From Burkholderiaceae bacterium (GTDB lineage: Bacteria; Pseudomonadota; Gammaproteobacteria; Burkholderiales; Burkholderiaceae_A): 64,000 nucleotides of DNA. Shown piece by piece: positions 36,152 through 63,984 of this stretch. Where the stretch lies: positions 136 to 64,135 of the forward strand of contig JAGYKN010000009.1 of assembly GCA_018401615.1 (NCBI GenBank), given 5' to 3'. Every line of letters starts with the position of its first letter. The first letter of the stretch is position 1. The notes beneath the pieces were generated by a model. That model was not told the DNA's origin, did no database searches, and saw only the letters and a list, made by a program, of their open reading frames with translations. The translations under genes were made by a program, and so were the position numbers.

Positions 36152-36574
36152 CTAGGAGGCGAGCCGGACGGCGGTGGGTCGGTTGTTGAGCATGCCTGGA
36201 ATGGTGCCCCAGGCGCTTTGAATCTCCGAGATCAGGCTGGTGACCTCTGCAAGGGCTTCGAGGTCGTTGTGCAGATTCACATGCAGGAGGCGGCGGGTCA
36301 CATAGCCATAGAGTTCGTCGAGGTTACGGGCGATTTCGCCGCCGGCATCAAAGTCCAGTGCGCCCTGAAGGCCCAGCACAATCTTGCTTGCTCGGCTCAG
36401 GCTCTTGGACTTCTCCTCGATGGCGCCACGTCGGATCTGACCCTCGGCGGACTTCAGGCTCTCCATCAACCCGTCAAAGAGCATCTGAATGAGTTGAACG
36501 CTGTCTGCAGTGGCCACGCCAGTGGTGACTTTCACATCACCGTAGCTCTCAATCGCTTTTCTCATCTGCCGCAT
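36152..36574 (-). CDS. fliS: Flagellin chaperone FliS
   Basis: QLIQMLFDG, LQGALDFDAGGEIARNLDELYGY, EIQSAW. Confidence 0.93.
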   Translation of the reverse strand: MRQMRKAIESYGDVKVTTGVATADSVQLIQMLFDGLMESLKSAEGQIRRGAIEEKSKSLSRASKIVLGLQGALDFDAGGEIARNLDELYGYVTRRLLHVNLHNDLEALAEVTSLISEIQSAWGTIPGMLNNRPTAVRLAS

Positions 36575-36643
36575 TTTGGAGTCCTCGTTTTCGTTTCACT
36601 CGGTGGGGGCGCTTTCGCGTCCAACACTGAGGGAATCGGTCGA

Positions 36644-37399
36644 TCAGGCCGAGGCTTTAGCGGGAAGTTGCATTTCGCTGCCTGCCGGGGTCGGCTGGCC
36701 TTCCAGGGCAAGGGCAGGCGGGTCGCCCATCTCCAGGGCCTGGCCCGGCAGGTTGATCAGGCGCTTGGCCCAGGCCCCGCCCTTGGCATCCACGCCGGTG
36801 CGCTGAAAGAGGACATCACAGACCTCCTCGAGTCCTTTGCGCACAGACTCCAGGTTTTTCTCGGTGACGGTGGCGCTGTCGAACCCCGCCTGGTAGATGG
36901 CGTCGGCGTGTTGTTGGGGTATCCAAGAGCTCACGACGCCTCTTAAGCCTTTGATCTTTCGGCGATTTGAGGCGATCTTGGAGGAGCCCTCCTTGCCGTG
37001 TTCGGCGCCCTCGGCCACGAGCTCCTGAATGTGCTTGGTGAGAATCACGCCGTATCGAAGCTTGAGTTCCTCGATTTTTTCGGGCTCGACCCCCTCGACT
37101 GGCTTGCCGGTCATGCCGTCCCAGAGGCGCTTGCCCTGAAGCGTGCCAAAGCTGGCGTCGGCCTTGTCTTCTTGCATGACCTGTGAGTCGGCCTGAGCCT
37201 CTGCTTTTTCATCGACTGGTGCCGCCTCACCGTCTGGCCCAGTGAGTGCCAGCGAGAATTCATCGCGCAGTGCGTCCTCACTTGGCATGGGAGGAACCAC
37301 CGCCTGGTGGACGGCCCGAACATGGTCAACCACCATGAGCATGAGCACCATCACCACAGCGAGCAAGACGAGAATTGAGAATAAAAGAACCGTGTTCAT
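36644..37399 (-). CDS. Hypothetical membrane-anchored protein sharing a domain with the neighbouring ORF
   Basis: N-terminal TM; KLRYG-x12-EGAE and IKGLRGVVSSWIPQQHA motifs. Confidence 0.75.
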   Translation of the reverse strand: MNTVLLFSILVLLAVVMVLMLMVVDHVRAVHQAVVPPMPSEDALRDEFSLALTGPDGEAAPVDEKAEAQADSQVMQEDKADASFGTLQGKRLWDGMTGKPVEGVEPEKIEELKLRYGVILTKHIQELVAEGAEHGKEGSSKIASNRRKIKGLRGVVSSWIPQQHADAIYQAGFDSATVTEKNLESVRKGLEEVCDVLFQRTGVDAKGGAWAKRLINLPGQALEMGDPPALALEGQPTPAGSEMQLPAKASA

Positions 37400-37426
37400 A
37401 TCGAGCCCCTAAAACCAGTCCAGAGG

Positions 37427-37453
37427 AAATCGACCCAGCGGCAGGCTTCTTGA
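37427..37453 (-). promoter_or_regulatory. Putative sigma-28 promoter
   Basis: TCAAG-N14-GTCGATTT upstream of the 36644-37399 gene and fliS. Confidence 0.55.
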
Positions 37454-37474
37454 GGCTAAGCCAGAGGCCCTGCC

Positions 37475-37999
37475 TTACTTGTTGGCCCCATTGTCGTCGT
37501 CCTGGTCTGCCTCGTCACCATCCTCTTCGGCGAGCTGCTCCTTGAGAAAGCCCAGGGCTTCGAAAGGCTGGTCGAGGTCGAGCGCCTCTGAGATTTTGTC
37601 AGCCACGGCCTGACAGAGTTCAATGGCCTGTTCTGGCGATGCCTCTTCAAGTTGGAAGGCAGCGCCAACCTTGAAGATTTCCTCGGCGTACTCAAGCGGA
37701 AGGTAGGCGAGGATCTCGCCGTTGACGGACTTGATCGATTGGAAGGCCCTGGGCGAGGGCGCCTTTGGCTTTTCCTCGTCGTTGGCCACGGCGAGCATCG
37801 AGGCCTCTGCATGCTCTGCGGTGCGTTCAGCCCCTTCTATGAAGGTCTTGTCGAGCACGGCCCGGCATCGCAGGCCCATGCGCAGCTTCATGGAGCGGGT
37901 CTCGCGAGAGTCGTCCTTGGCATTGATGGCGGCCTCGAATTCCTGCTTGGCCTTGACCATCTGCTCTTTATCGGCGTTACCGAAAAGCTTTCCCAGCAC
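37475..37999 (-). CDS. Hypothetical protein downstream of fliA (paralog family)
   Basis: GAGAGGG RBS before GTG 37999; aligns with 17326-17973. Confidence 0.8.
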   Translation of the reverse strand: MLGKLFGNADKEQMVKAKQEFEAAINAKDDSRETRSMKLRMGLRCRAVLDKTFIEGAERTAEHAEASMLAVANDEEKPKAPSPRAFQSIKSVNGEILAYLPLEYAEEIFKVGAAFQLEEASPEQAIELCQAVADKISEALDLDQPFEALGFLKEQLAEEDGDEADQDDDNGANK

Positions 38000-38034
38000 G
38001 ATGCACCCTCTCGGCGTGAAGGGGGCCACGCGCC

Positions 38035-38745
38035 TTAGGCATCGACCCCCAAAATTGCTCGAAGTTTCTTCACGTTTGCAGACAAGATTTGACTGACCCG
38101 TGACTCCGAAACTTCCAGTATAGAACCGATTTCCTTCAGGTTGAGCTCTTCCTCGTAATAGAGCGACATCACCAGGCGATCCCGCTCTGGAAGCTGCTCG
38201 ATGGCAGCCACGAGGGCGCCCACAAGCTGGGATTCCTCGGCCTGGACGTCTGGTCGGCGCGATGCCTCGTCGGGGATGCTAAAGGCCTGCTCGGCCACAT
38301 CCTCGAGGTAAACCGTTTGGAATTGAGCAGCCTTGCGACGATCGGTCTGAAAGTCGTCGACACCCTGGCCAAGCGAGGCAGCCAGCTCGGCCTGAGAGGG
38401 TGCCCGACCCAGCGTGGCAGAGAGCTGGCGAGATTCCTCGTTGTGCTGTTTGTGGATGGCCACCGCCGAGCGAGGCAGGGTGGACATGCGACGGACTTCG
38501 TCAATGATGGCGCCGCGGACTCGGCTGTGGGCAAAGTGCTCAAAGGGCACACCTTTGGTGGGGTCATAGCCCTTTGCGGCCTCGAGCAGCCCAATGGCGC
38601 CCACCTGAACCAGCTCTTGGAGGTCCATGACGGACATGAGCCGCACCCGAAGGTGCAGCGCAATTCGCTTGACCAGGTCGAGGTGGCCAAGGACCAGCGC
38701 CTCGACCTCGTCGGCTGGGCTGACGTAGGGATTCTTGATTTTCAG
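38035..38745 (-). CDS. fliA: Flagellar sigma factor FliA (sigma-28), probable CTG start
   Basis: LVKRIALHL, GAIGLLEAA, RVRGAIIDEVR, LYYEEELNLKEIG, VSESRVSQI; the frame is open up to a CTG overlapping the flhG stop. Confidence 0.9.
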   Translation of the reverse strand: MKIKNPYVSPADEVEALVLGHLDLVKRIALHLRVRLMSVMDLQELVQVGAIGLLEAAKGYDPTKGVPFEHFAHSRVRGAIIDEVRRMSTLPRSAVAIHKQHNEESRQLSATLGRAPSQAELAASLGQGVDDFQTDRRKAAQFQTVYLEDVAEQAFSIPDEASRRPDVQAEESQLVGALVAAIEQLPERDRLVMSLYYEEELNLKEIGSILEVSESRVSQILSANVKKLRAILGVDA

Positions 38746-39548
38746 AGCTGTCGCTCCAGAAAGAAGGAGATGCCGCCATCGATGCCTTGGGGGGGAGGCA
38801 GGTTTCGCAGGCTGGTGGCGAGGTCCCTAAAGTTACGCGCCCCGAGACTGCCGGGCGCATGGGCCAACACGGGCTTATTCTTTCGCAGCCCTGCCAAGAT
38901 GAGCTCGTCGTGTTCGATGCTCCCGAGGTAGCCGAGCTGCAGGCCCAGGAACCGGCTTGCCACATCGTTGATGCGGGCATGCAGCATGGCGCCAGCTGCC
39001 TGGTCTTCCATCATGTTGGGCAATAAGTAGATGTCGTTTGTGACGCCCTCCTGGGCGAGAACCTTGATCATGCCGTAGGCGTCTGCAATAGAGGAGGGCT
39101 CATCTTTCACCACGATGAGTCGACGCCCGACGGCCCGCATGAAGGTGATGACCTGGGATGAGATTCCAGCTGCCGCGTCGACGATCAGGACATCGAGGTC
39201 GTCTTGAATCTGGCTAAAGGCCTGGACGACCGCGCCGGATGCAACCGGATCGAGGTTTGCCAGCTCGGAGATGCCCGAGCCGCCAGGGATGAGCTTGACG
39301 CCATGTGGGGTCGCGACCATGACTTCTTCAAGCGTTTTCTCGCCTGTGAGCACATGGCCAAAGTGGAATGGCGCCTTCTGCCCAAGGGCGATTTGGGCAT
39401 TGGCCAGGCCCATGTCCGCATCAAAGAGAACCACCTTGCGTCCCTCTGCTGCCATTGCGGTGGCCAGGTTCACGGCGATGGTGGTCTTGCCGACCCCACC
39501 CTTGCCGCTGGCCACCCCGATGACGTCTGGTCTCTTCTTTGTGCTCAT
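38742..39548 (-). CDS. flhG: MinD-like flagellar number regulator FlhG/FleN
   Basis: SGKGGVGKT, DADMGLAN, DAAAGIS, EPSSIADAYG; between flhF and fliA. Confidence 0.9.
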   Translation of the reverse strand: MSTKKRPDVIGVASGKGGVGKTTIAVNLATAMAAEGRKVVLFDADMGLANAQIALGQKAPFHFGHVLTGEKTLEEVMVATPHGVKLIPGGSGISELANLDPVASGAVVQAFSQIQDDLDVLIVDAAAGISSQVITFMRAVGRRLIVVKDEPSSIADAYGMIKVLAQEGVTNDIYLLPNMMEDQAAGAMLHARINDVASRFLGLQLGYLGSIEHDELILAGLRKNKPVLAHAPGSLGARNFRDLATSLRNLPPPQGIDGGISFFLERQL

Positions 39549-39567: not shown

Positions 39568-40854
39568 TCAAAGGACGACGCGCCCGGCCTGCAAGACGGT
39601 CTGCGCCGACTGGGCCAGCTGGACTGTGGCGCCTCCCATTCTATCGTTCTCAGCCTGTTTGGCCTGATGGGCCAATTCACCTGCCAGGTGATCGACCGCG
39701 AGTCTGGCCAGGCGAGCAGTGCCAAAAGGCTGTCGGCCAGTTCCGTCGGATTGTCCACCCGTAAACGGGTAGAGGGCGACGGGCCGCTGACACAGCGCAG
39801 CAATGAGCCCCCAGCCGTGAACGGCCTCATCGACTTTGGTGATCATCAGGCTGGACCAACTGTGCTTTTTCAGGAGGCCTTCAACCTGGTGGCTCGCCGC
39901 ATCGAGTGGCAGGGCCAGGTGGAAGACGGCCTCGGGAATGAGTTCCTCGAGGCGGGTTCGGTGGCGGGCCATCTCGATGCCGGGGGTGTCGATGATCACG
40001 CAGGCACGGCCCCGCAATTCTTCTAGGAGGGGCATCAGAAGGCTTGTCTCTTGCGCACGAAAGCAGTCCACACCGAGTCTGGAGCAGCCCATCTGAACCT
40101 GTGCCCAGGCGCCCAGGCGAGTGTCGCACCAACTCAGGACAGCAACCTGGTCTGTGCCCATGGACTGAGCAGCCTCAGCGGCCAGCTTGGCCACCGTTGT
40201 GGTCTTGCCCGCGCCTGATGGACCCATGACCACATGGATGCCCGACAGGGGGCCCTTATAGGTGTCGGACCCCATGCTCGAGAGCAAGAGGGCCTCGGTC
40301 TGTGAGATGGCCATCTGACTGTTGCTGGCCGATTGAATGTGATCGGTGATGAGCATTCGCAGCCCAATGGGGGTGTGGTCTGCCTGCAAGGCGCGATCGA
40401 ATTGGGCAGCCAGGCCGCCGAGCAGGGGCGCTCCGAAGCCACCCATCGACTGGCTCAGGCGCAGGTCGCGCCGCAGGATGGCCATCTCCTGGCGAACGAG
40501 ATCCACAATCTCGCGGGCTCGGATCTGATCGCGACCGGAGTCGTCTGCCGGGGCCTCGGGCACGGTGGTGTCGACTGCGTGCAGCTCGCGGTGCAGGGCC
40601 TCACCGAATTTCATTGGGGCAAAGCTTGGCTCGAGTCGCTCGGGTGCGCTGACAGCTGGCTCTAGGAACTCGCGGTCGGCCACCCGAAGGGTCATGGGAT
40701 CGGCCTCGAGGTCGACGGCCACGATGACCTCGGTCTGGCCGTTGACCTGCTCATGTGAGATCACAAGAGCGTCTTTGCCGTAGAGGCCCACTGCCTTCTC
40801 GGTGGCGGCTCGTAAATCTCTGGCTAAGATGCGTCGCAGTTCCATGGTGTTCAC
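39568..40854 (-). CDS. flhF: SRP-family GTPase FlhF
   Basis: GPSGAGKTTTVAKLA, DTPG, TKVDE. Confidence 0.88.
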   Translation of the reverse strand: MNTMELRRILARDLRAATEKAVGLYGKDALVISHEQVNGQTEVIVAVDLEADPMTLRVADREFLEPAVSAPERLEPSFAPMKFGEALHRELHAVDTTVPEAPADDSGRDQIRAREIVDLVRQEMAILRRDLRLSQSMGGFGAPLLGGLAAQFDRALQADHTPIGLRMLITDHIQSASNSQMAISQTEALLLSSMGSDTYKGPLSGIHVVMGPSGAGKTTTVAKLAAEAAQSMGTDQVAVLSWCDTRLGAWAQVQMGCSRLGVDCFRAQETSLLMPLLEELRGRACVIIDTPGIEMARHRTRLEELIPEAVFHLALPLDAASHQVEGLLKKHSWSSLMITKVDEAVHGWGLIAALCQRPVALYPFTGGQSDGTGRQPFGTARLARLAVDHLAGELAHQAKQAENDRMGGATVQLAQSAQTVLQAGRVVL

Positions 40855-42962
40855 CCTTCTTGTCTGGATGTGATTTCAACGGTTTCAATGACTTTTACAG
40901 ACTGGTCGTCTGGTATTTCGCTATAAGAAATGACAGCGAGCCCGTCGGCACGGTGTTTTGCAGCCTTGGCGAGCCAGGGCCGCAGCACTGGTGAGACCAC
41001 GAGCACGGCGTTGTTGCCGGCGTCCTCGACCTTCTTTGTGCTCTCACGCAGGGCCCGAAAGAGCCCCTCTGCCAGGCCTGGTTCCAGAATAATGTTGGCT
41101 GGGTCGCCGCGATGCTGCTGAATGGTGTTGTGGAGGACCTGTTCGAGCGATGGATCGAGGGTCATGACCGAGAGGGTGTCTTGATCATCGAGCAGGGCCT
41201 GAACAATCATGCGACCGAGCTTGGGACGCACAAGGGTGGTGAGCTCTAGTGGATCTTGTGTCTTGCCGCAGGCCTCGGCCAGGGCCTCCACAATGGTGCG
41301 CATGTCTCGAATCGAGACACCTTCTTCGAGCAGGCCCTGCAAGACGCGGGTGACAACGCCCAGCGAGAGCTTGGCAGGAACGAGCTCTTCAACCAGCTTC
41401 GGAAAGCGGCTGGCGAGTTTGTCTAATAGTTGTTGGGTCTCGTCGTGGCTCAGCAGTTCAGCCGCGCCTTCGCGCAGGACTTTATTGAGGTGGGTGGCCA
41501 TGGCAGTGGCCGCATCGACCACGGTGTAGCCGAGCGTGCGGGCGTGATCGCGCTGTGCTGGGTCAATCCAGACTGCATCAAGGCCAAATGCTGGGTCTTT
41601 GGTGGCAATGCCCTCGAGGGTGCCGTAGACCTGGCCTGGGCTGATGGCGAGTTCACGCCCCACCTTGACCTCGCCTTTGCCTCGCACCACGCCGTTGATG
41701 ACGATCCGATAGTGGTCAGGATCAAGGGTGAGGGAGTCTCGAATGCGAACGGGCTGCACAAGATAACCAAGCTCGGCCGAGAGCTTCTTGCGAACGCCCT
41801 TGACCCGGTTCATGAGTTGGCCGCCTGTCTCCACGTTGACGAGCGGAATGAGGCCGTATCCAATTTCCAGGCCGATCACATCGACAGCGTCGACGTCATC
41901 CCAGTCGAGTTCCTTGGGCGCATCGGCAGCGGCCTGCGCGGCAGCCTCTTCGGCAGTCGGCAGGGGCGGTTCGGCCCTGCTCTTCATGACCATAAAACCC
42001 ACACCCGTTGCCCCAGCCGCCAGGGTGAGAAACATCATGCTGGGCATGCCGGGGACGACCCCGAGTGTGGCCAGGATGCCCCCAGAGATAAAGAGGGCCG
42101 AGGGGTTGGAGAGTTGGCTCTTGGCCTGCTCGGTCATGTTCTCTGAGGTGGTCACCCGGGTCACCACGATTGCGGTGGCCAGCGAGAGAAAGAGGGCTGG
42201 AATCTGCGCCACCAGGCCATCGCCCACGGTGAGCAAGACGTAAATTTGGGCAGCATCTGTCAGGCTGAGATCGTGTTGAACAAGGCCGATCACCACGCCA
42301 CCAAGAATATTGATAAAGAGGATGATCAGGCCCGCCACGGCATCGCCCTTTACAAACTTTGAGGCACCGTCCATGGAGCCAAAGAAGTCGGCCTCTTGTG
42401 ATATTTCCTCGCGCCGCTTTTTGGCGGTCTCCTGGTCGATGACCCCGGCATTGAGGTCTGCATCGATGGCCATCTGTTTGCCCGGCATGGCATCGAGGGT
42501 GAATCGGGCGGTGACCTCTGAGACGCGCCCTGCGCCCTTGGTGATCACCGCAAAGTTGATCAAGACCAAGATGCCGAACACCACGATACCCACGAGATAG
42601 TTGCCAGCGATGACGAATTCGCCAAAGGCCTGAATGACCTTTCCAGCCGCATCTGGCCCGGTGTGCCCCTCGACCAAGATCACCCGAGTGGAGGCCACAT
42701 TAAGGGCAAGGCGCAGCATCGTGGTCAATAAGATGACAGCTGGAAATGAGGAGAAATCGAGGGGACGTTGAACCCCGATGGCCACCATGATGATGATCAG
42801 GCCCACCAGGATGTTGAATGTGAAGAGCAGGTCCAGCAATAGCGGCGGCAGCGGCAAGACAAGCATTGCCATGATGAGCAGCACCAGGGCCGGAATCCCC
42901 AGTCCACTCAACTTAAAGTTCAATGCGCTCTGTCGTAAGCTCGACAAACTCAGACTTGCCAT
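40851..42962 (-). CDS. flhA: Flagellar export gate FlhA
   Basis: RLALNVASTR, FTLDAMPGKQMAIDADL, FFGSMDGASKFVKGDA. Confidence 0.97.
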   Translation of the reverse strand: MASLSLSSLRQSALNFKLSGLGIPALVLLIMAMLVLPLPPLLLDLLFTFNILVGLIIIMVAIGVQRPLDFSSFPAVILLTTMLRLALNVASTRVILVEGHTGPDAAGKVIQAFGEFVIAGNYLVGIVVFGILVLINFAVITKGAGRVSEVTARFTLDAMPGKQMAIDADLNAGVIDQETAKKRREEISQEADFFGSMDGASKFVKGDAVAGLIILFINILGGVVIGLVQHDLSLTDAAQIYVLLTVGDGLVAQIPALFLSLATAIVVTRVTTSENMTEQAKSQLSNPSALFISGGILATLGVVPGMPSMMFLTLAAGATGVGFMVMKSRAEPPLPTAEEAAAQAAADAPKELDWDDVDAVDVIGLEIGYGLIPLVNVETGGQLMNRVKGVRKKLSAELGYLVQPVRIRDSLTLDPDHYRIVINGVVRGKGEVKVGRELAISPGQVYGTLEGIATKDPAFGLDAVWIDPAQRDHARTLGYTVVDAATAMATHLNKVLREGAAELLSHDETQQLLDKLASRFPKLVEELVPAKLSLGVVTRVLQGLLEEGVSIRDMRTIVEALAEACGKTQDPLELTTLVRPKLGRMIVQALLDDQDTLSVMTLDPSLEQVLHNTIQQHRGDPANIILEPGLAEGLFRALRESTKKVEDAGNNAVLVVSPVLRPWLAKAAKHRADGLAVISYSEIPDDQSVKVIETVEITSRQEG

Positions 42963-43037: not shown

Positions 43038-43053
43038 AGCAACCGGTGTGCCA
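43038..43053 (-). promoter_or_regulatory. Sigma-54 promoter for the flhA operon
   Basis: TGGCAC-ACCGG-TTGCT on the minus strand. Confidence 0.8.
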
Positions 43054-43086
43054 CGGTCTAGGTGCATCGAGGTCCCGGGGCGGCAA

Positions 43087-43141: not shown

Positions 43142-44710
43142 ATGACACCTTCCCTGGACACCGTCTTTCAACCCGCCGTGTTGCCCGATTCCACCGAGCA
43201 GGAGAGCACGTCTCGTGCCGACTCCCGCCGTGAGGATGGGGCGGGCGGCCCTGCCTTTCGAGACACCTTTGCGGCGGCGCATCACCGTCAGCGACCCTCA
43301 GCGCCTTCAGCCGCGTCAGCGCCTTCAGCTACCTCAGCCACCTCAGCTGCTTCCGCCCCAGGGCGGCGGGCGCTTGCCGACGATGGTCCAGACACCAACG
43401 CTGGTGAGCGCACTCACGCATCGGCTCCCAAGGGGGTTCTTCGGGAGATTCCTCTGGGGCGCACGGCCACCTTATTGGTGGCGGGCGAACCGCCCTCGGA
43501 GGAGGACCTCCTGGCCTTTGCCCGAGAGGCTGGGCTGCCCGACAGTGCTGTTGAGGCACTCATGCTTGGCAAGGGACTGTCTTCGGTCCCCGATGCCGCT
43601 TGGACCCCAGGTGGAGACACCACCACGCCCCTGATCACCCCAGAGGAGGCGTTGTTGGTGGCTGTCGAGGAGGCCGGGCCCCCGGATGCGGGTGCGGCCG
43701 CAGGTGCGGATGCGGGTGCGGCCGCAGGTGCGGCAGCTTGGGCGGCAGGTGTGGCGCTCACAAACGGCCTGATGGCAACCACCACAGCCCCCACCACGGC
43801 CCCCACCATGCCAACATGGCTGACTGGCCTTGGCACGGCCGCACCTTTGCAAGCGATGGCTGCAGGACCCGTCGGTGTGCAGACTGTTGATGCGCAGACT
43901 GTTGATGCGCAGGCCGTTGATGCGCAGACCGTTGATGCCCAGGGCCTGCTCACCCCGATTCGGCTGCGCATCCCTGTTCTAGATGCCCAGTCAGCTGCTG
44001 TCTGGGCCGCCCGAGCTGAACAGGGCCTTGAGGCCAAGGGGGTGAAGCTCGATCCCCTGGTCTTGCAGCGGATTGTGTTTGAAAAGATGGCCGATGCCAC
44101 ACCCCTGCCCACCACGGCTGAGCGACTCGCCAGCATTCAGGCTGCCGACCTCGGGGCCGCCGTTCCCACCGATGGCCCCGACCTGGACCGACTCGCGGCC
44201 GATGTGGGCGGGGCGTCGCCCTCGCGCGCGGCCGGTGGGAGCCTTTTTTCGGGGCAAGGCGACAACGGCCAGGGGCGGCAGGCCAATCAGCAGTTGGCCC
44301 AGCGCTTTGGCGATCTCTTGAGCCAGCGGCTGGTTCAACAGATTTCTCAGGGCAATTGGAAGGTCAACATGGAGGTCCACCCCCGCGCACTTGGAGAGAT
44401 TCAGATTGAGTTGCACTGGAAGGGCGGGGAGCTTGAGGCCTCGTTTAGAACGAGCCAATTGGCCACGCGAGAGCTGCTGCTCGACCAGCTTCCAAGGCTG
44501 AGGGAGACACTTGAGAAGTCTGGCACAGACGTTGCTTCACTGACGGTGGGTGATTCATCTCGTCAAAAAAATGGCGATGAGAAGGGTCACAATCGGAATC
44601 ATGATGCGCAGTCTGCGGTCCAAACAGGCGATGTGATGTCTGTGGAGGGTGGCGGGGACTTGAGTTCTCAGCCGGTGGCCTCGGACGGTCGACTGGATGT
44701 CCTGGTCTAG
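43142..44710 (+). CDS. fliK: Hook-length control protein FliK
   Basis: Low-complexity body (QTVDA repeats) and C-terminal domain HPRALGEIQIEL...LPRLRETL; precedes fliL. Confidence 0.85.
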   Translation: MTPSLDTVFQPAVLPDSTEQESTSRADSRREDGAGGPAFRDTFAAAHHRQRPSAPSAASAPSATSATSAASAPGRRALADDGPDTNAGERTHASAPKGVLREIPLGRTATLLVAGEPPSEEDLLAFAREAGLPDSAVEALMLGKGLSSVPDAAWTPGGDTTTPLITPEEALLVAVEEAGPPDAGAAAGADAGAAAGAAAWAAGVALTNGLMATTTAPTTAPTMPTWLTGLGTAAPLQAMAAGPVGVQTVDAQTVDAQAVDAQTVDAQGLLTPIRLRIPVLDAQSAAVWAARAEQGLEAKGVKLDPLVLQRIVFEKMADATPLPTTAERLASIQAADLGAAVPTDGPDLDRLAADVGGASPSRAAGGSLFSGQGDNGQGRQANQQLAQRFGDLLSQRLVQQISQGNWKVNMEVHPRALGEIQIELHWKGGELEASFRTSQLATRELLLDQLPRLRETLEKSGTDVASLTVGDSSRQKNGDEKGHNRNHDAQSAVQTGDVMSVEGGGDLSSQPVASDGRLDVLV

Positions 44711-44746: not shown

Positions 44747-45391
44747 ATGGCGGACGAACAAGAGCAACAAGAGGGCGGCAAGAAAAAATCGCCACTCAAA
44801 TTGATCCTACTAATCGTGGGTCTTCTGGTGCTGCTCGCAGTCACCGTGGTCGGAACCCTCGCGGTAACAGGATTCTTTAGCCAGCCCGATCCAAACTCAG
44901 TCGAGGAACTTCTCAAGAAGGCCGAGGCTGACAAGGCTGCTGCTGATGCGGCCAAAGAGGGCGAGGCAGATGGCCAGCCTCAACTCGGCCCGGATGGCAA
45001 ACCACTTCCCAACACAAAAGAGTCTCCCGCTGGTCCTGAGAAAGTCACCAAGAATGCGGCCGACGTCAATAGGTTTGAATCGCGCTACAAGGAGATGGGT
45101 CGCCCCCTGCTTGCCAATGTGACTGGGTCGCGAAAGGTCATGCAGGTGACCGTTGCAATCATGACCCATTACGACGACAAGGTCCTCGAGAACATGGAAA
45201 AGCACGATTTTGCCCTTCGTAACTCTGCGCTGGATGTCATGCGTCAGGTGACAGAGGCTGAGCTCGACAGACCCACCTTTCGAATCGAACTGGCCGAGAA
45301 GATCCGGCTGGCCATGAACGCTGTGCTCGAACGCTATGAGGATTTTGGTGGCATCGAGCAGGTGCTCTTTACCGAGTTTGTGGTTCAGTAA
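44747..45391 (+). CDS. fliL: Flagellar protein FliL
   Basis: GGKKK followed by a TM; IEQVLFTEFVVQ end. Confidence 0.9.
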   Translation: MADEQEQQEGGKKKSPLKLILLIVGLLVLLAVTVVGTLAVTGFFSQPDPNSVEELLKKAEADKAAADAAKEGEADGQPQLGPDGKPLPNTKESPAGPEKVTKNAADVNRFESRYKEMGRPLLANVTGSRKVMQVTVAIMTHYDDKVLENMEKHDFALRNSALDVMRQVTEAELDRPTFRIELAEKIRLAMNAVLERYEDFGGIEQVLFTEFVVQ

Positions 45392-45417
45392 CCAACGCCA
45401 GAAAAGGCAAGAAGATC

Positions 45418-46428: not shown

Positions 46429-46431
46429 ACC

Positions 46432-46761: not shown

Positions 46762-46762
46762 G

Positions 46763-51830: not shown

Positions 51831-51832
51831 CT

Positions 51833-56219: not shown

Positions 56220-57380
56220 TCAGCCCGCCTGGTCTTGGGCATCGACCTCGGGCTTGCATTTGAGATCGTATTTGTTGATTTTCTCAATCAGGGTGGTGCG
56301 CTGCACGCTCAAGATCCGGGCCGTCTTGGAGACATTTCCATCGGCCTGCTCGAGTGCCTGCTCGATGAGTGAGCGCTCAATGTCAGTGAGTCGCTTTTTG
56401 AGGGGCACGCCGTCTAACACCACAAGTGGTGAGCCCTGCGCCAGGCAGATGAGGTCTTCAATGGGATTTGGCGCGCTCGAGGCCATCATGATGGCGTCGG
56501 CCTGGTCGACCTGGTCCGCTTGGTCGGCGTGGGTGAGGGCGGTGGCGCCCTCTGGCGTTGGCGCAGCGGTGCTGGGGGATGCTTTGGGGGTTGCTTTGGG
56601 GGTTCGGTCTCTGAGGCCTCGGGGCAACATGTCTTGCGGGATGTCTCGATAGCAGACCTTGCGGCCGGCAAAGAGCGCGCTAAAGCGGGCAATCACATTC
56701 GAGAGTTCGCGAATATTTCCTGGCCAGTGATAGGCCATGAACTCCTCGAGCAGCGCTGGGCTGGGCTCAATGGGGCGGTGGCCATTGCTTGCATGGAGGG
56801 TGGCAAAGTGTCGCGAGAGCATGGGCACGTCTTCTCGGCGCTCCCGAAGGGGAGGGGTGGTGAGGGGCAGCACGTTGAGCCGGTAATAGAGGTCTTCGCG
56901 AAAGCGACCAGCCTCGACCTCCTCCTCGAGGTCTTTGTGGGTGGCAGCGACCACTCGAACATCGACCTTGATTGGCTTGCCCCCGCCCACGGGCTCGACG
57001 ACCCGTTCTTGAATGGCGCGAAGCAGTTTGACCTGCATGTCCAGGGCGAGGTCGCCGATCTCATCGAGAAAGAGGGTTCCGCCATGGGCGAGTTCGAATC
57101 GGCCCATGCGGTCGGCAACAGCCCCGGTAAAGGAGCCCCGTTTGTGGCCAAAGAGTTCGCTCTCAATGAGCTCTCGGGGGATTGCCCCACAATTGACGGG
57201 CACCAGGTTTTTCTGCGCCCGGGCAGAGCAGTCGTGAAGGGACTTGGCAACCAGTTCTTTTCCGGTGCCACTCTCCCCTATGATCAACACAGTGGCGTCT
57301 GAATGCGCCACCGATTCGATGAGTCGTTTGAGGCTTAAAGTCGGCGGGCTGGTGCCGATGATGCTATTGAGTGCGTTCAA
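56220..57380 (-). CDS. Sigma-54 activator, FleQ/FlrA-like, with no N-terminal sensory domain
   Basis: [36 protein letters not shown], Fis-[15 protein letters not shown]; probable TTG start at 57380. Confidence 0.85.
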
Positions 57381-57394
57381 TCGTTTTAGGCGGC

Positions 57395-57421
57395 TAAAGC
57401 CCTCTGGGTTGGGGTCGAAAC
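57395..57421 (+). promoter_or_regulatory. Putative sigma-28 promoter for the flgP-like operon
   Basis: TAAAG-N14-GTCGAAAC. Confidence 0.55.
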
Positions 57422-57456
57422 TAAGCCATAAGCATGATACTAGGGAAGCCATCACC

Positions 57457-58032
57457 ATGAAGCGTCAACTGATTCAACTCCTGATCCCATCGGCCGCACT
57501 GGCCCTCTCGGCCTGCGCCGCCATTCCGGTGGAGATGAAGTCCTCTGTCGTAGAGGCTCCAAAGGCCGTCGCGCCGGAACCCCCACCAACGCTCTCTGAG
57601 CGGTACCCCGGCTCGACTGGGGCGCGGGTAGCTGCGGCAAAATCGGCCAGCGTGAACATGGCCTCACCCATGGCGGACAGGCGTGATGCGCTCACCTCCA
57701 CGGGCTATGCCGTCGTGAGCGTTCAGAATCACCGCCTGCCAGCCCAGCAGCGCCTCATGGCCATTCGAGCCTCCAAGCTCGACGCCTACCGGGGCCTCAC
57801 CGAGCAGGTCTATGGTCAACAATTAGACGCCCGCACCACGGTTGCAGACATGGTGATCCAGAGCGATAGCTTTCGGTCCCGGGTGGAGGGTGTGATCTAC
57901 GGCGCCCGCCTTGAGAGCATCACCCCAGTGGGCGATGACACCTATGAGACCACCCTCACGCTCGACGGTGCGGTGGTCAATGACCTGCGCCTCTTGTACC
58001 TCGAGCAACTCGCCTTTCAGCGCCCTCGCTGA
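57457..58032 (+). CDS. flgP: LPP20-family lipoprotein, FlgP-like
   Basis: LSAC lipobox; RLMAIRASKLDAYRGLTEQVYG...RVEGVIYGA. Confidence 0.78.
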   Translation: MKRQLIQLLIPSAALALSACAAIPVEMKSSVVEAPKAVAPEPPPTLSERYPGSTGARVAAAKSASVNMASPMADRRDALTSTGYAVVSVQNHRLPAQQRLMAIRASKLDAYRGLTEQVYGQQLDARTTVADMVIQSDSFRSRVEGVIYGARLESITPVGDDTYETTLTLDGAVVNDLRLLYLEQLAFQRPR

Positions 58033-58074: not shown

Positions 58075-59247
58075 ATGATTCTGCTCGTCTCTCGATGGAC
58101 CGCTCTGATGGGGCTGGGCTGCTTCTTGGCTGCCAGTGTGGCGGCCAAGGAGCCAGTCGAGGCGGCCACCAAGGCGCAGCCTGAGGCACGACTCGAGTCG
58201 ATTCGAGCTGACCTGATCGAGGCGGCCACCAAGGCACGCACCCGAGTGCGGTCGGTGGCCTGGGTTGATGAAAATGGCAGCCTCCAAGAGGCCACCCGAT
58301 TCACCTCCGATGTTCAGGTTCGCGGTGTTCGCGGTGTCCGAGTAAATGGTTACCTCTCGCCGCAGGCCGACCCTGGCATGGGTCTCGAGGCCGTTCCCAC
58401 CCCGCAGGCAGAGGCTTGCGCGCAAGACCTGGGTGTGCACCGGCGCCACGCCTTGTTTCAGGTGCTCCCGGCCTTGTCTGGCCCTTTTTTTGGCGAGGCT
58501 CAGATGTCCCAGTTGTCCCAGAGCTTTGGTCAAGAACTCGTGAGCCTCTTGGCTGCCGAGACAGGTTGGTCGCTCACGCTTGCAAAGACACCCTCCTACG
58601 CTGGGCAGGCCATGAGTCGCTATGAGCAGGCGCTGGTGGGCCGCATCCAAGACGAGGCGCCCTATGTGGTGACGGTGCAGCTTCAAGATCTTGGGGCGTT
58701 GCCGCCACCCGAGCCGTTGGGGGACACGCCGCCCTGGGTCACGGGCACCCTTATTGCGGTGGGTGTCAAAGCCGCACCCTTGCCCAGGGGGCTCCTTGGC
58801 CTCACGGTGATTTTATCGGACCGGGCAACGGGTCAATCGGTCTTTGCCCGCCAGGTGCGCTTGGCACTCACCCGCACGCCAAAGGGATACTTAGATGCCC
58901 CCGAGGTTCAGCTGGCCGAGCCCGACATTGCCAAAACTGCTTTATCTGGCCTGCAGCGGGATTTTCGCAACCACATGGCCTGCGAGAAGCCCGAGTACCC
59001 CGTGATTGAGCGCCAAAAGGGCGGGGACTTGGTGATCAATGGCGGGGCGAGGGTGGGCATTCGGCTTGGCGAGCAACTCCTGCTCACCAAGTCGGGGCAG
59101 TTGCCCAGGCGAATTTTAGAGTCGGGCGTGGCCAACGGCCTGGCCCTTGCAGAGGTTGTGTCGGTGGTGGAAGATCGAGCTGTTGTGAAAGTGATTGCCG
59201 GGCCTCGCCCAGCGTCGCTCGAGCAGCTCGTGGTCTCGCCGCTCTGA
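58075..59247 (+). CDS. Exported protein with FlgT-like C-terminal domain
   Basis: Signal peptide; C-terminal C...LVINGGARVGIRLGEQL pattern; follows flgP. Confidence 0.55.
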   Translation: MILLVSRWTALMGLGCFLAASVAAKEPVEAATKAQPEARLESIRADLIEAATKARTRVRSVAWVDENGSLQEATRFTSDVQVRGVRGVRVNGYLSPQADPGMGLEAVPTPQAEACAQDLGVHRRHALFQVLPALSGPFFGEAQMSQLSQSFGQELVSLLAAETGWSLTLAKTPSYAGQAMSRYEQALVGRIQDEAPYVVTVQLQDLGALPPPEPLGDTPPWVTGTLIAVGVKAAPLPRGLLGLTVILSDRATGQSVFARQVRLALTRTPKGYLDAPEVQLAEPDIAKTALSGLQRDFRNHMACEKPEYPVIERQKGGDLVINGGARVGIRLGEQLLLTKSGQLPRRILESGVANGLALAEVVSVVEDRAVVKVIAGPRPASLEQLVVSPL

Positions 59248-59269: not shown

Positions 59270-59827
59270 ATGAGATCGCCGTCCGTTTTTTCCGCAGGTT
59301 CCTTAGCAGGCCTCTTGGTGGGTCTGCTGGCCTTTGGCGCAACCCATGCCCAGCCCATGCCCGACACAGCCCAGGCGCTTCGCACCCTCATGGGGCCCTC
59401 GAACCAGCCGGGCACCGGCATGGCGCCTCAGGCTGCAGCCATGCCGCAGGGCCAGATGGTGGTCACCAAACCAGGCGACACCCTGGCCAAGATTCTGGCG
59501 GCCAACATGGGCCCGCATCCTTACAACGCCAAGGCGGTCCATCAGGCCGTGACGGCCATGAATCCCCAGTCGTTTATCAGGGGCAACCCCAATCGGCTCA
59601 TTGCGGGCGTGATGCTTCGGCTGCCAAGCCCAACCGAGCTCCATGCGGTGCTCACGGGCCAGATGATGCCGACCACGATCGGGGCTCGCGATGGGATGGC
59701 ACCAGCCCAATCAGCCCATGGCCCGATGGGGGGTTCTGCCAACGGCACGTCCAAGCTCCAGAGCAACGCACCCACTGGAGCAGAAGATTTTGAGCGTCAC
59801 CGCGGCTGGGTCCGTTTCCCGCGCTGA
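59270..59827 (+). CDS. Small exported protein with a FimV-type LysM-like domain
   Basis: Signal peptide; KPGDTLAKI...NPQSFIRGNPNRLIAGVMLRLP. Confidence 0.7.
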   Translation: MRSPSVFSAGSLAGLLVGLLAFGATHAQPMPDTAQALRTLMGPSNQPGTGMAPQAAAMPQGQMVVTKPGDTLAKILAANMGPHPYNAKAVHQAVTAMNPQSFIRGNPNRLIAGVMLRLPSPTELHAVLTGQMMPTTIGARDGMAPAQSAHGPMGGSANGTSKLQSNAPTGAEDFERHRGWVRFPR

Positions 59828-59854: not shown

Positions 59855-60970
59855 ATGCTGACGGGGCCCGATGCCATCGGTGTGGCTGGAGCAAAGCCAT
59901 TGCCCATCTACCTTGAGGGTCGCTCGATTCCCATGGCCGACGCCTTGGGTCGGGCACTGGGCCTTAAATTCAATGAGGTCGTGCGTGGGGTGGTTGAGGC
60001 ACGCGGTGAGACGCTGCTGCTCAAACTCAATGGCCGAGAGGTCGAACTTCCCGCGCAGCTGAAATTTCGGCCGGGCGAGGTGCTCTGGTTGCGCTACACC
60101 GAGATGGGCCGGGGCATGGCGCTGGTGACCCAGCCTGGACCCGGCGCGGTGGCGGCGGTGCGGCGGGCAGGGCGGGTTGGCGGCCGGGGCAGCAGGTCAT
60201 CCAGCCCCAATTGCGGCCCCACCTGTGGGCGGGCTCGCCCGCGGTGGCAAGCTTGTTTCTTCGGCCAGCGGATTTCTCGGGGCTGCTCTCCTGCTCTCAG
60301 GGGCACCTTTGCTGGCCTGGCGCAACGGGCCCAGGGCAGTGGGAGCGCAGGGGTGGCAAATGGCTGGGCAGTGGGCCTCGCAGCGCCCTGCCATGGGGCG
60401 CACGGCCGAGGGCGTTCGACGGGGCCCTGCGAGCCAGTGGCCTTTTCACGGAATCGGCCCCGGGCAAGGGCATGGTGGTTTCAAGATCTCAAGCTGGCCA
60501 TGCGTCAGGCCATTTTGTTCAGTCCGAGGCACTCGCCTGCGGCCAGTTGGAGTCTGGCCTGCATGAGCCTGAGAGCGCTCAGGCAGACGCGCTTCGGGGT
60601 CTCAAAAATAGCGAGATGGGCTTTAGCTTTCATTCCCTTTCGAGACGCGATCTCGGTAATGTTTTTTCTGACCTCGGCGCACCCCGAGGAGCCCAATCCG
60701 CCTGCGGTGGTCAACCTCTACACCCGCAGCGAGACCCTGGGCGAAGTCTGATGAAGACTGTGATTGAGGTGTCAGACACCATTTCGCTCACGATGGGCCG
60801 AGCGGCGGCGACGGGCTAACCGCGCCAAGGCCGCGGTGGGGGGAGCTGAGACGAAATGACCAGCGCGGGATTATCCTCAAGAGCATGGTGGTGCGTATGG
60901 TCGGCGGCCTGAGGAGGGTGTGGTGGTGGCGGCACGCACCGGCGCCGTGCTGGATCTAAAGGCCCAGGGC
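59855..60970 (+). CDS. Probable second FliK-like protein, heavily frameshifted
   Basis: Coherent N-terminus, SETLGEV hairpin near the C-terminus, followed by an FlhB-C-like gene; boundaries approximate. Confidence 0.35.
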
Positions 60971-60971
60971 G

Positions 60972-61250
60972 GTGTTAAGGAGCAAAACGCGAGGCGGTCG
61001 CTCCTGGAATATGGGGTCAACAAGACCCCAGTGCGGTGGTGGCCAAGGGTTCGAGGAGATCGCCGAGCGAATTCTGGACGAGGCCCGCAAACATGGGGTC
61101 TATGTGGCGCAGGACCCTGCTGCTTGCTGCTGGCGCGGCTCGACATTGACTGTGAGATTCCACCCAACCCCATGCCGCGGTGGCGGTGATCCTGTCTTGG
61201 GCGTATTAAGTAAAGGGGCATGGAGCCCGGCGACGAGAGGGGATGGCTGA
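60972..61250 (+). CDS. FlhB C-terminal-domain protein (EscU/YscU/HrcU family), frameshifted
   Basis: Across frames: LEYGVNKTP, GFEEIAERILDEARKHGVYVAQDP, LDIDCEIPP, AVAVILSW. Confidence 0.65.
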   Translation: MLRSKTRGGRSWNMGSTRPQCGGGQGFEEIAERILDEARKHGVYVAQDPAACCWRGSTLTVRFHPTPCRGGGDPVLGVLSKGAWSPATRGDG

Positions 61251-61302: not shown

Positions 61303-61683
61303 TTAAGCGTCGGCGAGGCCGCGGCTGCGGCGGTTGGCGCTCATGCGCCCCATGCGGTCGTAGACCTCAACGGAGCTGGCAGCGTCTGCGCCCTGCAGGG
61401 TTTTGAGGGCCGCCCGAATGGCGTCGAGCTTGCGCTGGACCAGTATTTGATTGCGACGATGGTGATCGCGGCACTGCCGAATCACCTCTCGAAAGGGCTC
61501 CCACAACTCAGCTTGGGGGCCTTCCTCAGGCAGCGTCAATGCGCCCAGTTCATCTAAGATGGCCGCTTTTTCGGCCTGATACGCTTCAAATGCCGTGAGA
61601 TCCTGTGTTTTCAGAGCCTCGAACTCGGCGTCGAGGAGCGCCAAAAGGCGCTCCGCCTTGGGCAGGTTATCGGTCGGCAGCAC
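61303..61683 (-). CDS. flgN: Flagellar export chaperone FlgN
   Basis: LDAEFEALK, CRDHHRRNQIL, VYDRMG; downstream of flgM. Confidence 0.8.
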   Translation of the reverse strand: MLPTDNLPKAERLLALLDAEFEALKTQDLTAFEAYQAEKAAILDELGALTLPEEGPQAELWEPFREVIRQCRDHHRRNQILVQRKLDAIRAALKTLQGADAASSVEVYDRMGRMSANRRSRGLADA

Positions 61684-61984
61684 CCGAGATCATTCGCTCT
61701 AGCGAGACGAAACTCTCCGCGATGCGCCGGGCATCCAGGGGGTAATTGCCGTCCCGAATGGCCTGCTTGATGCGCTCGACTTTTTCGGAGTCGAAGTCGG
61801 GGGCCGCCATGGCACGTGCGTCGATGCCGCTTAACTCCACGCGATCGTCTGCCGGCTCGGCGGCACGAGGGGCCTGCCCAGATTGAACGGCGTTGCGTTT
61901 GTCGTCTTCAATTTTCTTGAGCCGATTTTCAGCCGCAAGGTCTGCCTGCGCGGTGCGGCCCAAACTCGAAATAGGGTCAGCCAT
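61667..61984 (-). CDS. flgM: Anti-sigma-28 factor FlgM
   Basis: DRVELS, FDSEKVERIKQAIRDGNYPLDARRIA. Confidence 0.92.
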   Translation of the reverse strand: MADPISSLGRTAQADLAAENRLKKIEDDKRNAVQSGQAPRAAEPADDRVELSGIDARAMAAPDFDSEKVERIKQAIRDGNYPLDARRIAESFVSLERMISGAADR

Positions 61985-62028
61985 GGTGTGTGTCCTTTGT
62001 GTCGGCGTTACTTTACCTGTTGTTGGAG

Positions 62029-62055
62029 GTATCGACACCATTTTGAAGAACTGAA
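62029..62055 (-). promoter_or_regulatory. Putative sigma-28 promoter of flgM
   Basis: TTCAG-N14-GTCGATAC. Confidence 0.5.
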
Positions 62056-62100
62056 GTCCTCTTGTGAAATAACCTCAGGGTTCGGTGCAGGCCCGTATTG

Positions 62101-62955
62101 TCAGGATGCACGCGCATGCCCCCTGCCCACAATCTGCCCAGTCATGATTCGACCGGACTCCTTGTTTTTAAAGCGAATTTGGTCTCCAAAGCGGCCATCT
62201 TCGAGTGCTTCTACGGTGATTTGGATGATCAGACCGGGCACCCGCTCAAGGGCAAGCACCACAGGCTGGCCCCGGCGCACAAGAGTGGAGGGGCGAAGGT
62301 CGGTGGCCCGAATCGCCTGCCCAGCGGGAATGGCCCGCACCACCTGGGCGAACTCCAGGCCATCGGTGGTGGTGAAGTAGGTGTGGGCTGGACCTGCCAA
62401 TGGCCGCTCCTCGACCTTAAAGAGAGATGCCTCGACGGGCTGGTTGGCCGATAGATTTGCCACTGCCACGACCACCCGTTTCATGGGCGGACCAGCAGGG
62501 GTTGTTTTGGCTGCGGGTGCCTTGGCCATCGACACCGCTGGTTGGTCGGTTCTCTTTAGGAAGACTGTCCAGTCGGGTTTGAGGCAGCGGGCCCGAAGGC
62601 TTGAGGGCTGGCTCGAAAAGGGTTGATCGAATGCGATGGGACCCTGACAGGCTTGTATTTGAAGTCGTGCATCGAGCGGGGCAAAGGCAATGGACGCTGC
62701 AGCACCCTGCTGCGGTGCACTTGCCAAGAGCCACTGCCGGGCCTGCTCGATGAGGGCGGCCTGAGGCTCGGATGCTGCCGGGGCCTCACCGCGGCCAGAG
62801 GGCGAGGCCGTTTGGGCTTGAACGCTGGCCAGACAAACGGCGGTGGCCAGGCCAATGCCCAGCGCCCAAGACAGGGGTCGGGGAAGCATGAGGAGCCGAG
62901 GGCGTTCGTGTGCCCAGGGCATGTCGCGGCGGTGAATGTAGGCGTTCATTTGCAT
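62101..62955 (-). CDS. flgA: P-ring formation chaperone FlgA
   Basis: LDARLQIQAC, LVRRGQPV, EALEDGRFGDQIRFKNKESGR; start uncertain. Confidence 0.88.
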   Translation of the reverse strand: MQMNAYIHRRDMPWAHERPRLLMLPRPLSWALGIGLATAVCLASVQAQTASPSGRGEAPAASEPQAALIEQARQWLLASAPQQGAAASIAFAPLDARLQIQACQGPIAFDQPFSSQPSSLRARCLKPDWTVFLKRTDQPAVSMAKAPAAKTTPAGPPMKRVVVAVANLSANQPVEASLFKVEERPLAGPAHTYFTTTDGLEFAQVVRAIPAGQAIRATDLRPSTLVRRGQPVVLALERVPGLIIQITVEALEDGRFGDQIRFKNKESGRIMTGQIVGRGHARAS

Positions 62956-62966
62956 ACCCAGGCTAA

Positions 62967-62982
62967 AGCAAAACCCAAGCCA
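62967..62982 (-). promoter_or_regulatory. Sigma-54 promoter for flgA
   Basis: TGGCTT-GGGTT-TTGCT on the minus strand. Confidence 0.65.
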
Positions 62983-62990
62983 GAATTAGT

Positions 62991-63006
62991 TGGCATGGCT
63001 TTCGCT
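62991..63006 (+). promoter_or_regulatory. Sigma-54 promoter for the LysM-lysozyme gene
   Basis: TGGCAT-GGCTT-TCGCT. Confidence 0.65.
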
Positions 63007-63018
63007 TCTGCCACTGTC

Positions 63019-63984
63019 ATGAAAGTTCATGTTCAACCCGGTGACACCCTCTCTGGCCTGACCAGGCAAGCCCTGGGCCAACTCGGCCAGATGCGGCCTG
63101 CCGATGCGCAGCGCATGCCATTCAGGGATCTCATGGCCCGCATCCATACGGTGGCCGAACACAACCAAATTCACAATCCCGACAGAATTCTGGCGGGCCA
63201 GACCATTGATTTTTCTGCGCTCATTGGCTCCCAGGGGCCTGCGGCGAAGGTGCTCAATGGTCACCCACCCCACCTCTCCCAGACCTTATCAGCCAATGAA
63301 GCTGCAGCCGTGGTGCTCGGTGAGCGCACCGGCACCCAATACCGCGTGCTCGAGCGGACCCTCGATCGCGCAGTGTCCAGGGGATTCATCCCCGCCAACG
63401 AGGCCGCAGATGTGCAGCGCCGAATTCTCGACATGTCTCGCTCGTATCGGTTTAATCCCGACGATTTCGCCCGCGTCTCACTCATGGAGAGCGATGGCCT
63501 GAATCCGCGGGCCACCAATGGCAACTGCCACGGCATCATTCAATTCTGCAACGGCCCAGCTCGCGGCGCTGCAAGCGCTGGTTACGCAAAAGACCCAGAG
63601 AAGATCCTCGACCTTAGCGTGCTCGAGCAACTCGACCTGGTGGAGCGCTACTTTGAAGACACGGGCCTGCAGCAGTACAAGCCGGCCTCCCTCGACAACC
63701 TATACCTCACGGTGCTCTACCCCGCGGGCCGCAGTGAGCGGCAGATGAATCAGTCACTCGGCGTGCCCGGCCAGCAGGCCGCAGCCCTGCACGTGGGCGG
63801 CAACCAGAATGCACCCATCACCCGCGCCTCGCTGAGAAAGGGGCTCATCGAAAATGCCAACCAGCGCCTGAGTCAATTCTCTCTGGCGCAGGCCCAGCGC
63901 GAACCACTTGCCCGAGCTGATACCAGGGCCGATGCCCAGGGCTTGCGCCGGCCGGCCACCCGAGATCTCTTGGCCGTGAGATGA
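63019..63984 (+). CDS. LysM + lysozyme/lytic-transglycosylase-like protein
   Basis: VQPGDTLS...NPDRILAGQTI (LysM); LMESDG, GIIQF, EQLDLVERYF, LYLTVLYP (lysozyme-like fold). Confidence 0.75.
   Translation: MKVHVQPGDTLSGLTRQALGQLGQMRPADAQRMPFRDLMARIHTVAEHNQIHNPDRILAGQTIDFSALIGSQGPAAKVLNGHPPHLSQTLSANEAAAVVLGERTGTQYRVLERTLDRAVSRGFIPANEAADVQRRILDMSRSYRFNPDDFARVSLMESDGLNPRATNGNCHGIIQFCNGPARGAASAGYAKDPEKILDLSVLEQLDLVERYFEDTGLQQYKPASLDNLYLTVLYPAGRSERQMNQSLGVPGQQAAALHVGGNQNAPITRASLRKGLIENANQRLSQFSLAQAQREPLARADTRADAQGLRRPATRDLLAVR

Follow-up and report, generated by a model that had tools for sequence, protein, structure and literature searches.

The window analysed here, a 64,000-nt stretch on contig C78 of a Burkholderiaceae bacterium genome (1.62 Mb, 86% complete), contains between positions 36152 and 63984 half of a sigma-54/FleQ-type flagellar gene set. 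The set is probably an intact, sigma-54-controlled system, sister to the Fla1/fla3 flagella, that was acquired long ago by planktonic Burkholderiales and replaced a flagellum of the FlhDC type. The lineage has a gene content and an ancestry of its own, is widely distributed, occurs without FlhC, and combines conserved sigma-54-type motifs with a single housekeeping RpoN. Gene identities come from Pfam/NCBIfam family scans of the window proteins (Table 1), and two closed relatives, G025 and the single-contig, 99%-complete G010, served for comparison. The remaining genes lie on other contigs of the same genome (the second activator and fliE-J on C19, flgH-L on C39, fliD on C59), and flgB begins just past the window end.

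Ancestry and distribution

An FlhA tree (IQ-TREE, 58 of the 100 extracted rows) groups the window, the host family and Limnohabitans-type genomes at 100/100, and splits these carriers from native Burkholderiales at 100/100. Their sister is a pair formed by a plasmid cluster of Octadecabacter arcticus and a Rhodobiaceae genome (100/99). When FlhA was rooted with Bacillota and Azospirillaceae outgroups under the C20 mixture model (36 rows), the carriers and the alphaproteobacterial pair fell within a gammaproteobacterial clade (100), and the support for their sister link was 92. The FlhA of a Sphingomonas paeninsulae plasmid joins the alphaproteobacterial Fla1-like side of the rooted tree on a long branch. 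A concatenate of FlhA, FlhB, FlhG and FliA supports the sister link at 100 (41 rows) and at 99 under C20 (28 of those rows), and rejects native-Burkholderiales monophyly (approximately unbiased test, p = 0.003). The lineage is thus distinct from the canonical FlhDC flagella of Burkholderiales, as an earlier note on this DNA had proposed. FlhF and FlhG, which that note had taken as markers of a foreign system, are present but do not single one out: flhF also occurs in the native clusters of Rhodoferax, Limnobacter, Nitrosomonas, Gallionella and Vogesella, most of which have a recognisable flhG too.

The betaproteobacterial background of the host is borne out by an RpoD tree, for which RpoD was obtained from 26 of the 30 genomes queried. 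The host genome and its family fall in a Burkholderiaceae-like clade of the Burkholderiales (100/100), apart from the Comamonadaceae clade. Carriers form two separate Burkholderiales clades in this tree, and a Rhodoferax with native-type genes is nested among the Comamonadaceae carriers. FlhA identity is 69–94% among carriers, 43–48% between carriers and alphaproteobacterial clusters, and up to 58% between carriers and Gammaproteobacteria. The flagellum was likely acquired by these small bacteria of lakes and brackish water from outside the carriers' own group. The GC content at third codon positions (GC3) is 0.71 in the flagellar cluster and 0.707 in the genome, an equality that, judging by composition, makes the acquisition an old one. 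The trees support the horizontal acquisition suggested earlier, but the event is not particular to this genome, being common to the family and to a Limnohabitans genus.

Several points weigh against this reading. Taken by itself, FlhA gives only a marginal rejection of native monophyly (p = 0.049), and the unrooted concatenate does not reject a clade of carriers, alphaproteobacterial and native sequences (support 35), so that the gammaproteobacterial root depends on one gene. Long branches lead to both sisters, and the Fla1 side is represented in the trees by stand-ins for Rhodobacter sphaeroides, the Octadecabacter plasmid cluster and alphaproteobacterial genomes. No close donor was found among 400 genomes of the class, where the best FliM is 37% identical. 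Clear counterparts of u1–u4, the FliK-like pair and the transglycosylase are missing from the alphaproteobacterial clusters.

A separate transfer whose donor was an unsampled gammaproteobacterium would explain the long branches on both sides, the higher FlhA identity to Gammaproteobacteria than to the alphaproteobacterial clusters and the lower sister support in the rooted tree, with the Fla1/fla3 link then reflecting long-branch attraction and shared ancestral genes. We consider this unlikely in view of the four-gene sister support, which stays at 99–100, and of the profiles of the FimV-like gene and of the gene at 35.7 kb, which match alphaproteobacterial clusters and almost nothing in gammaproteobacterial or native loci; the latter control is weak, because those loci cover only about 10 kb on either side of flhA.

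FlhA of this lineage (at least 70% identity) was found in 24 of the 36 relatives of the host family, or 25 of 37 genomes including the source; six further relatives have different FlhA types and six give no FlhA match. FlhC was found neither in the 86%-complete source genome nor in any of the 24 family carriers among the relatives, FlhD not having been searched in either case. The only FlhC in the family belongs to G015, whose FlhA is native-type. A third, long-branched FlhA occurs in G006, G030 and G036, without FlhC or CheW matches; because it sits beside the same oxidoreductase gene, it suggests flagellum replacement at one site. Within the Limnohabitans genus (including G061), 72 of 81 genomes carry FliM of this type, all matches being 52–67% identical, compared with about 27–31% to native types.

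Close FlgP relatives occur in 7 of 401 genomes of the order, in three families, and distant ones (36–47%) in 29 more. Among Alphaproteobacteria, 10 of 401 genomes have an FlgP match, all of them 1.4–2.5 Mb in size. Five genomes of other families contain FlhA with no FlhC match. One genome, G205, carries the flg genes of this lineage, and a native-type cluster is found in its congener G051; since G205 also has a conventional-scoring CheW and a weak FlhC match, it may hold two flagellar systems.

The host-like GC3, the deep FlhA divergence among carriers and the fact that other Burkholderiales families have FlgP relatives and flagella without FlhC could also be accounted for by an ancestral second flagellum of the order, inherited vertically and lost almost everywhere. 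That scenario is very improbable given the small number of genomes and families with close FlgP, the scatter of the carriers in the RpoD tree and the position of rooted FlhA among Gammaproteobacteria.

Gene content, regulation and motor

A crude 15-mer search for sigma-54 sites over the whole window gave 12 hits versus 8.8 by chance, which is not significant. Strong sites, matching at least 11 of 13 consensus positions, number six in the cluster versus 1.9 expected from the genome rate, and none lies in window positions 1–36151. Using a lenient threshold for the relatives (at least 10 of 13 positions, within 400 nt upstream), sites recur before flhA (10/11), fliL (10/11), flgA (9/10), flgB (9/10) and, among PomA-type relatives, motA (4/8); a sigma-54-type motif also precedes one flagellin in G010 and G004. 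The four sigma-54 promoters reported previously therefore correspond to real motifs conserved before genes in relatives, but their number is at least five. A sigma-70 scan yielded nothing beyond chance level. The FleQ-like activator was correctly recognised: family scans find its AAA and Fis helix-turn-helix domains and no N-terminal domain. A second sigma-54 activator heads fliE-J, and each of the six genomes inspected has just one rpoN, placed in the lptB-rpoN housekeeping context.

If the system works as R. sphaeroides Fla1 does, FleQ together with the host RpoN would turn on the second activator and fliE-J, after which both activators would drive flhA, fliL, flgA, flgB, mot and one flagellin, with FliA/FlgM in charge of the late genes. 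FlgP and FlgT would form outer-membrane rings and, with FliL and the MotF-like u5, recruit the stators in place of MotX/MotY, while the rod would pass through a wall opened by the LysM-transglycosylase.

The PomAB-like stator and the FlgP/FlgT-like ring proteins were rightly proposed from the letters. The best Protein Data Bank (PDB) match of stator A is Vibrio PomA (E = 7e-59), and that of stator B is Vibrio PomB (E = 5e-63, with the G010 orthologue as query). FlgP matches PDB FlgP chains (E = 1e-15). The FlgT candidate is weak by family scan and its sequence profile has no match among PDB sequences; its identity rests on fold, the AlphaFold model matching FlgT structures 8z5n and 3w1e (E = 2e-13 and 2e-12). 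MotY, searched as MotY_N, is absent in four of four carriers and present in a Pseudoalteromonas control, MotX and FlgO not having been searched.

In the available part of PMC10374538, Na+ selectivity is tied to PomA residues T158, T185 and T186, of which T158 and T185 give way to alanine in proton stators. All three threonines are present in the window and in 8 of 11 relatives examined. G021, G061 and G422 have instead an E. coli-type MotA of 286–287 amino acids (aa) with other residues at those sites, and the Lcl_C gene was not seen in the examined stretches of these three. The best-matching DNA runs come under the labels salt lake, aquatic and marine metagenome, and the top one may be the sample from which the genome came; RNA runs of small share were not counted as habitat evidence. 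We predict that in saline waters the PomAB-type stator can take Na+, and we hypothesize that stator type is linked to salinity. The prediction of Na+ use is made less certain by the absence of NqrA, of the Na+-translocating NADH:quinone oxidoreductase (Na+-NQR), from all 37 family genomes, and by the description of R. sphaeroides Fla1 as proton-driven in the accessible text of PMC9198570.

Table 1. Features of the flagellar region and its immediate flank, in window coordinates.
Feature	Position	Strand	Basis or remark
small membrane-anchored protein	35737..36132	+	just outside region; Octadecabacter homologue
fliS	36152..36574	-	family scans
u1	36644..37399	-	N-terminal membrane anchor and domain weakly related to u2; in carriers including Limnohabitans
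u2	37475..37999	-	helical with beta-hairpin, confident structure model
fliA (sigma-28)	38035..38646	-	frame open upstream to flhG stop; start uncertain
flhG/fleN	38742..39548	-	family scan
flhF	39568..40854	-	family scans
flhA	40851..42962	-	family scan; trees
sigma-54-type motif before flhA	43038..43054	-	motif search
fliK	43142..44710	+	family scan
sigma-54-type motif within fliK, before fliL	44520..44536	+	motif search
fliL-fliM-fliN-fliO-fliP-fliQ-fliR-flhB	44747..50188	+	family scans
u3	50185..51700	+	conserved N-terminal domain, membrane segment, SPOR-like C-terminus; tail broken in window
u4	51775..52535	+	between u3 and u5; poorly conserved; broken in window
u5	52502..53533	+	membrane segment and long coiled coil
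Lcl_C (PF07603) lipoprotein	53560..54039	-	divergent from motA
sigma-54-type motif before motA	54072..54088	+	motif search
PomA-type stator A subunit	54198..54956	+	Thr at T158/T185/T186 positions, Ala at A190
PomB-type stator B subunit	54962..56212	+	5' end with indels
FleQ-like sigma-54 activator	56220..57458	-	AAA and Fis helix-turn-helix, GSFTGA loop; true start near 57395
flgP lipoprotein (LPP20)	57457..58032	+	family scan; PDB FlgP match
flgT (H-ring)	58075..59247	+	FlgT_C-like; fold match
small FimV-core/LysM-like secreted protein	59290..59827	+	family scan
FliK-like-domain protein and small FlhB-C-terminus-like protein	59855..61250	+	broken in window
flgA-flgM-flgN	61303..62955	-	family scans
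two opposed sigma-54-type motifs	62967..63006		62983 minus before flgA; 62990 plus before transglycosylase
LysM and lytic-transglycosylase protein	63019..63984	+	directly before flgB

Most of the genes counted earlier as at least six unassigned ones now have tentative roles; u1, u2 and u4 remain without one. For u2, no PDB fold match (Foldseek), no Atlas match and no informative names among relatives were found, although 193 relatives are detected at E ≤ 0.001. A u2 paralogue (39% identical) lies at window 17326–17973, at the edge of a carboxysome island; because of this paralogue and the roughly 190 relatives elsewhere, u2 is perhaps not flagellum-specific. In relatives u3 measures 584–589 aa, its SPOR-like domain coming from a weak, below-threshold DamX match, and u4 varies from 128 to 358 aa (248 aa in G010 and G025). 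The u5 protein is homologous to the post-flhB protein of alphaproteobacterial Fla1-like clusters (hhalign 94%, E = 9e-8). Its relatives bear hypothetical or generic names only, with no record named MotF found, and by position and shape it is a candidate MotF-like stator helper.

The gene at 35737 has a profile match (E = 4e-15) to OA238_RS27025, a homologue within the Fla1-like plasmid cluster of Octadecabacter, and is for that reason likely a flagellar accessory. A FimV-core/LysM-like gene follows flgT in all eight alphaproteobacterial Fla1-like clusters examined, and the Lcl_C gene divergent from motA recurs in alphaproteobacterial G824. The FliK-like and FlhB-tail-like pair encodes 384 and 91 aa in relatives. 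The gene before flgB combines LysM with a lytic-transglycosylase domain match (9udh, E = 5e-5); because FlgJ is short (152–182 aa), wall opening likely falls to this protein.

Frames are broken in the window at 51.2–52.2 kb, at the motB 5' end and at 60.1–61.3 kb, and G010 and G025 have them intact. Four DNA runs, taken from four separate studies, agree on the same indels relative to the window at 60.5–61.2 kb and differ densely from it at 51.3–52.0 kb; elsewhere, long pieces of the closest run differ at 0–2 positions. The motB start is restored by an RNA contig, and the motB indels are also absent from relatives. The broken frames are very likely assembly errors, and pseudogenisation is contradicted by all four DNA runs at 60.5–61.2 kb and by the RNA contig at the motB start. 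A chimeric contig, a concern raised by the earlier note, is ruled out, because G010 and G025 keep the same order of rpoD, flavin mononucleotide (FMN)-oxidoreductase gene and flagellar cluster.

Between rpoD and the flagellar cluster, window 16500–33900 holds an alpha-carboxysome/RuBisCO island with cbbL, csoS2, csoSCA, a CbbR-like regulator and a SulP transporter. G010 and G025 lack it at this position, and its GC3 is 0.66 versus 0.71, features by which it appears to be a more recent acquisition; it suggests carbon fixation in this 1.6 Mb genome.

Chemotaxis and expression

CheW was found in 4 of 25 family carriers, in 2 of the 10 that are at least 90% complete, and in 21 of 24 genomes of other families; kin are not independent in these counts and many genomes are incomplete. 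The closed genome G010 has no CheW, methyl-accepting chemotaxis protein or PilZ. CheW matches at E ≤ 1e-20 occur in 4 of the 81 genomes of the Limnohabitans genus, and 68 of 72 carriers there are without one, a count that ignores weaker matches and comes without completeness values. None of 10 alphaproteobacterial carriers has CheW. Most of the che-bearing carriers have in common a distant cluster encoding a CheA of about 1030–1100 aa and a triple-CheW protein, which may travel as an optional steering module. In G004 (L230:9075-17600) this chemotaxis cluster encodes a CheA of 1029 aa together with a three-domain CheW protein, and matching CheA and triple-CheW frames occur in G003, G016, G018, G422, G1258 and G1271. 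The FliM N-terminal motif (LLSEE/DELAAL), considered as a clue to steering, proved uninformative, because it is identical in carriers with and without che genes.

A chemotaxis pathway is missing from most carriers, so the motor would turn without being steered by chemotaxis and would serve dispersal, encounter or escape from grazers, with a minority adding the separate che cluster. The scarcity of CheW agrees with the available part of a study of Limnohabitans (10.1101/839407), in which flagellar genes are core, che genes rare and cultures non-motile, and whose accessible text does not state the flagellar type. Four metatranscriptome runs contain contigs of the cluster, one of them, from a 90–95% relative, spanning 30 of 30 bins, though such contigs may include DNA carry-over. 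The non-motile cultures and the lack of a flagellin gene in the source genome's assembly also count against the main reading. All flagellar genes are intact in the closed relatives, including stators, rings and two flagellins, and G004 likewise has two flagellins.

Genes that are kept for attachment or secretion rather than swimming, or that are decaying, would explain both the missing chemotaxis and the cultures phenotyped as non-motile, and the broken frames of this assembly fit such a reading. It is the least probable of the alternatives, as every gene is intact in the closed relatives and four DNA runs and one RNA run contradict the window at the broken places. The acquired flagellar lineage is probably functional.

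In G010 and alphaproteobacterial G824 the flagellins are very long (999 aa, and up to 1590 aa in G824), as are the hook protein (974–1500 aa) and FlgK. The long-flagellin loci of G010 adjoin a sugar-modification gene block, and in G004 fliJ is followed by a repetitive protein of 3152 aa (L040:4700-14155), which has a sigma-54-type motif upstream.

Comparison with known flagella and biological meaning

The closest kin of the system are Fla1/fla3 rather than the Vibrio flagellum, so that of the two likenesses drawn previously the first prevails. In the part of PMC7277832 available, Fla1 is under FleQ/FleT/RpoN2 and has FlgP, FlgT, MotF, a long FlgK and a short FlgJ plus SltF, without MotX/Y. The accessible portion of PMC12363192 equates Fla1 with fla3, spread by operon transfer in Rhodobacterales, and the word 'Betaproteobacteria' is absent from its main text; from its Fla1 layout, we infer that the Octadecabacter cluster is fla3. 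No description of this system in Burkholderiales was found in the literature searched, whose coverage excludes most subscription papers.

The carriers share with R. sphaeroides Fla1 two sigma-54 activators, the second heading fliE-J, as well as FliA/FlgM, FlgP and FlgT, the lack of MotY, a long FlgK (1246 aa in G010 versus 1363), a short FlgJ with a separate lytic transglycosylase, and a membrane/coiled-coil protein after flhB; core proteins are sister to, not nested in, the stand-in clusters. These alphaproteobacterial clusters also have tandem activators, long FlgE and FlgK, short FlgJ, the FimV-like gene after flgT and u5 after flhB, with Lcl_C in G824 only and the 35737 gene in Octadecabacter only. 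The Fla1/fla3 motor is characterised as subpolar, unidirectional and proton-driven. By contrast with Fla1, the hosts are Burkholderiales, FlhA is only 43–48% identical, RpoN is the single housekeeping one with no cluster-borne copy, FlhF is intact and che genes are usually absent. The carriers have extras of their own (u1–u4, the SPOR protein, the FliK-like pair and a LysM-type transglycosylase), and the cluster is the sole flagellar system in closed genomes.

The polar flagellum of Vibrio, Aeromonas and Pseudoalteromonas, built with FlrA/FlrC, PomAB, FlgOPT and MotXY, resembles the system in its PomAB-type stator with Na+-site threonines, FlgP/FlgT, FlhF/FlhG and sigma-54 motifs, including one before a flagellin. 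The carriers differ from it in the absence of MotY (0/4), the activator without an N-terminal domain, the lack of Na+-NQR and of che genes after fliA, and their separate branch. With the native FlhDC flagellum of Burkholderiales they share core export and switch genes and the order flhA-flhF-flhG-fliA, but they form a separate clade, lack FlhC and use another stator. Flag-2/lateral (LafK) sigma-54 systems occur in some Betaproteobacteria and are alike in sigma-54 control in a betaproteobacterial host. Their plasmid LfhA-type matches, absent from the trees, are only 35–41% identical to this FlhA.

Few freshwater genera are as abundant as Limnohabitans. A wider proposal, which we put forward as a tentative one slightly more likely to fail than to hold, is that a distinct lineage spread between unrelated streamlined plankton and became the usual flagellum in Limnohabitans as well as in a Burkholderiales family with small genomes. 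It would be steering-free and run by host sigma-54, with a stator module swapped between PomAB plus Lcl_C in saline waters and E. coli-type MotAB in fresh waters; its alphaproteobacterial sister likewise has small genomes and no CheW (10/10). The FleQ/RpoN-controlled, Fla1-related identity of the flagellum provides concrete switches that are testable in existing cultures. The three FlhA types within one genus offer a natural case of whole-flagellum replacement, and the carriers one of different stators being exchanged on the same rotor and of oligotrophs that would move without chemotaxis. The lineage also supplies a second branch for tracing the origin of R. sphaeroides Fla1.

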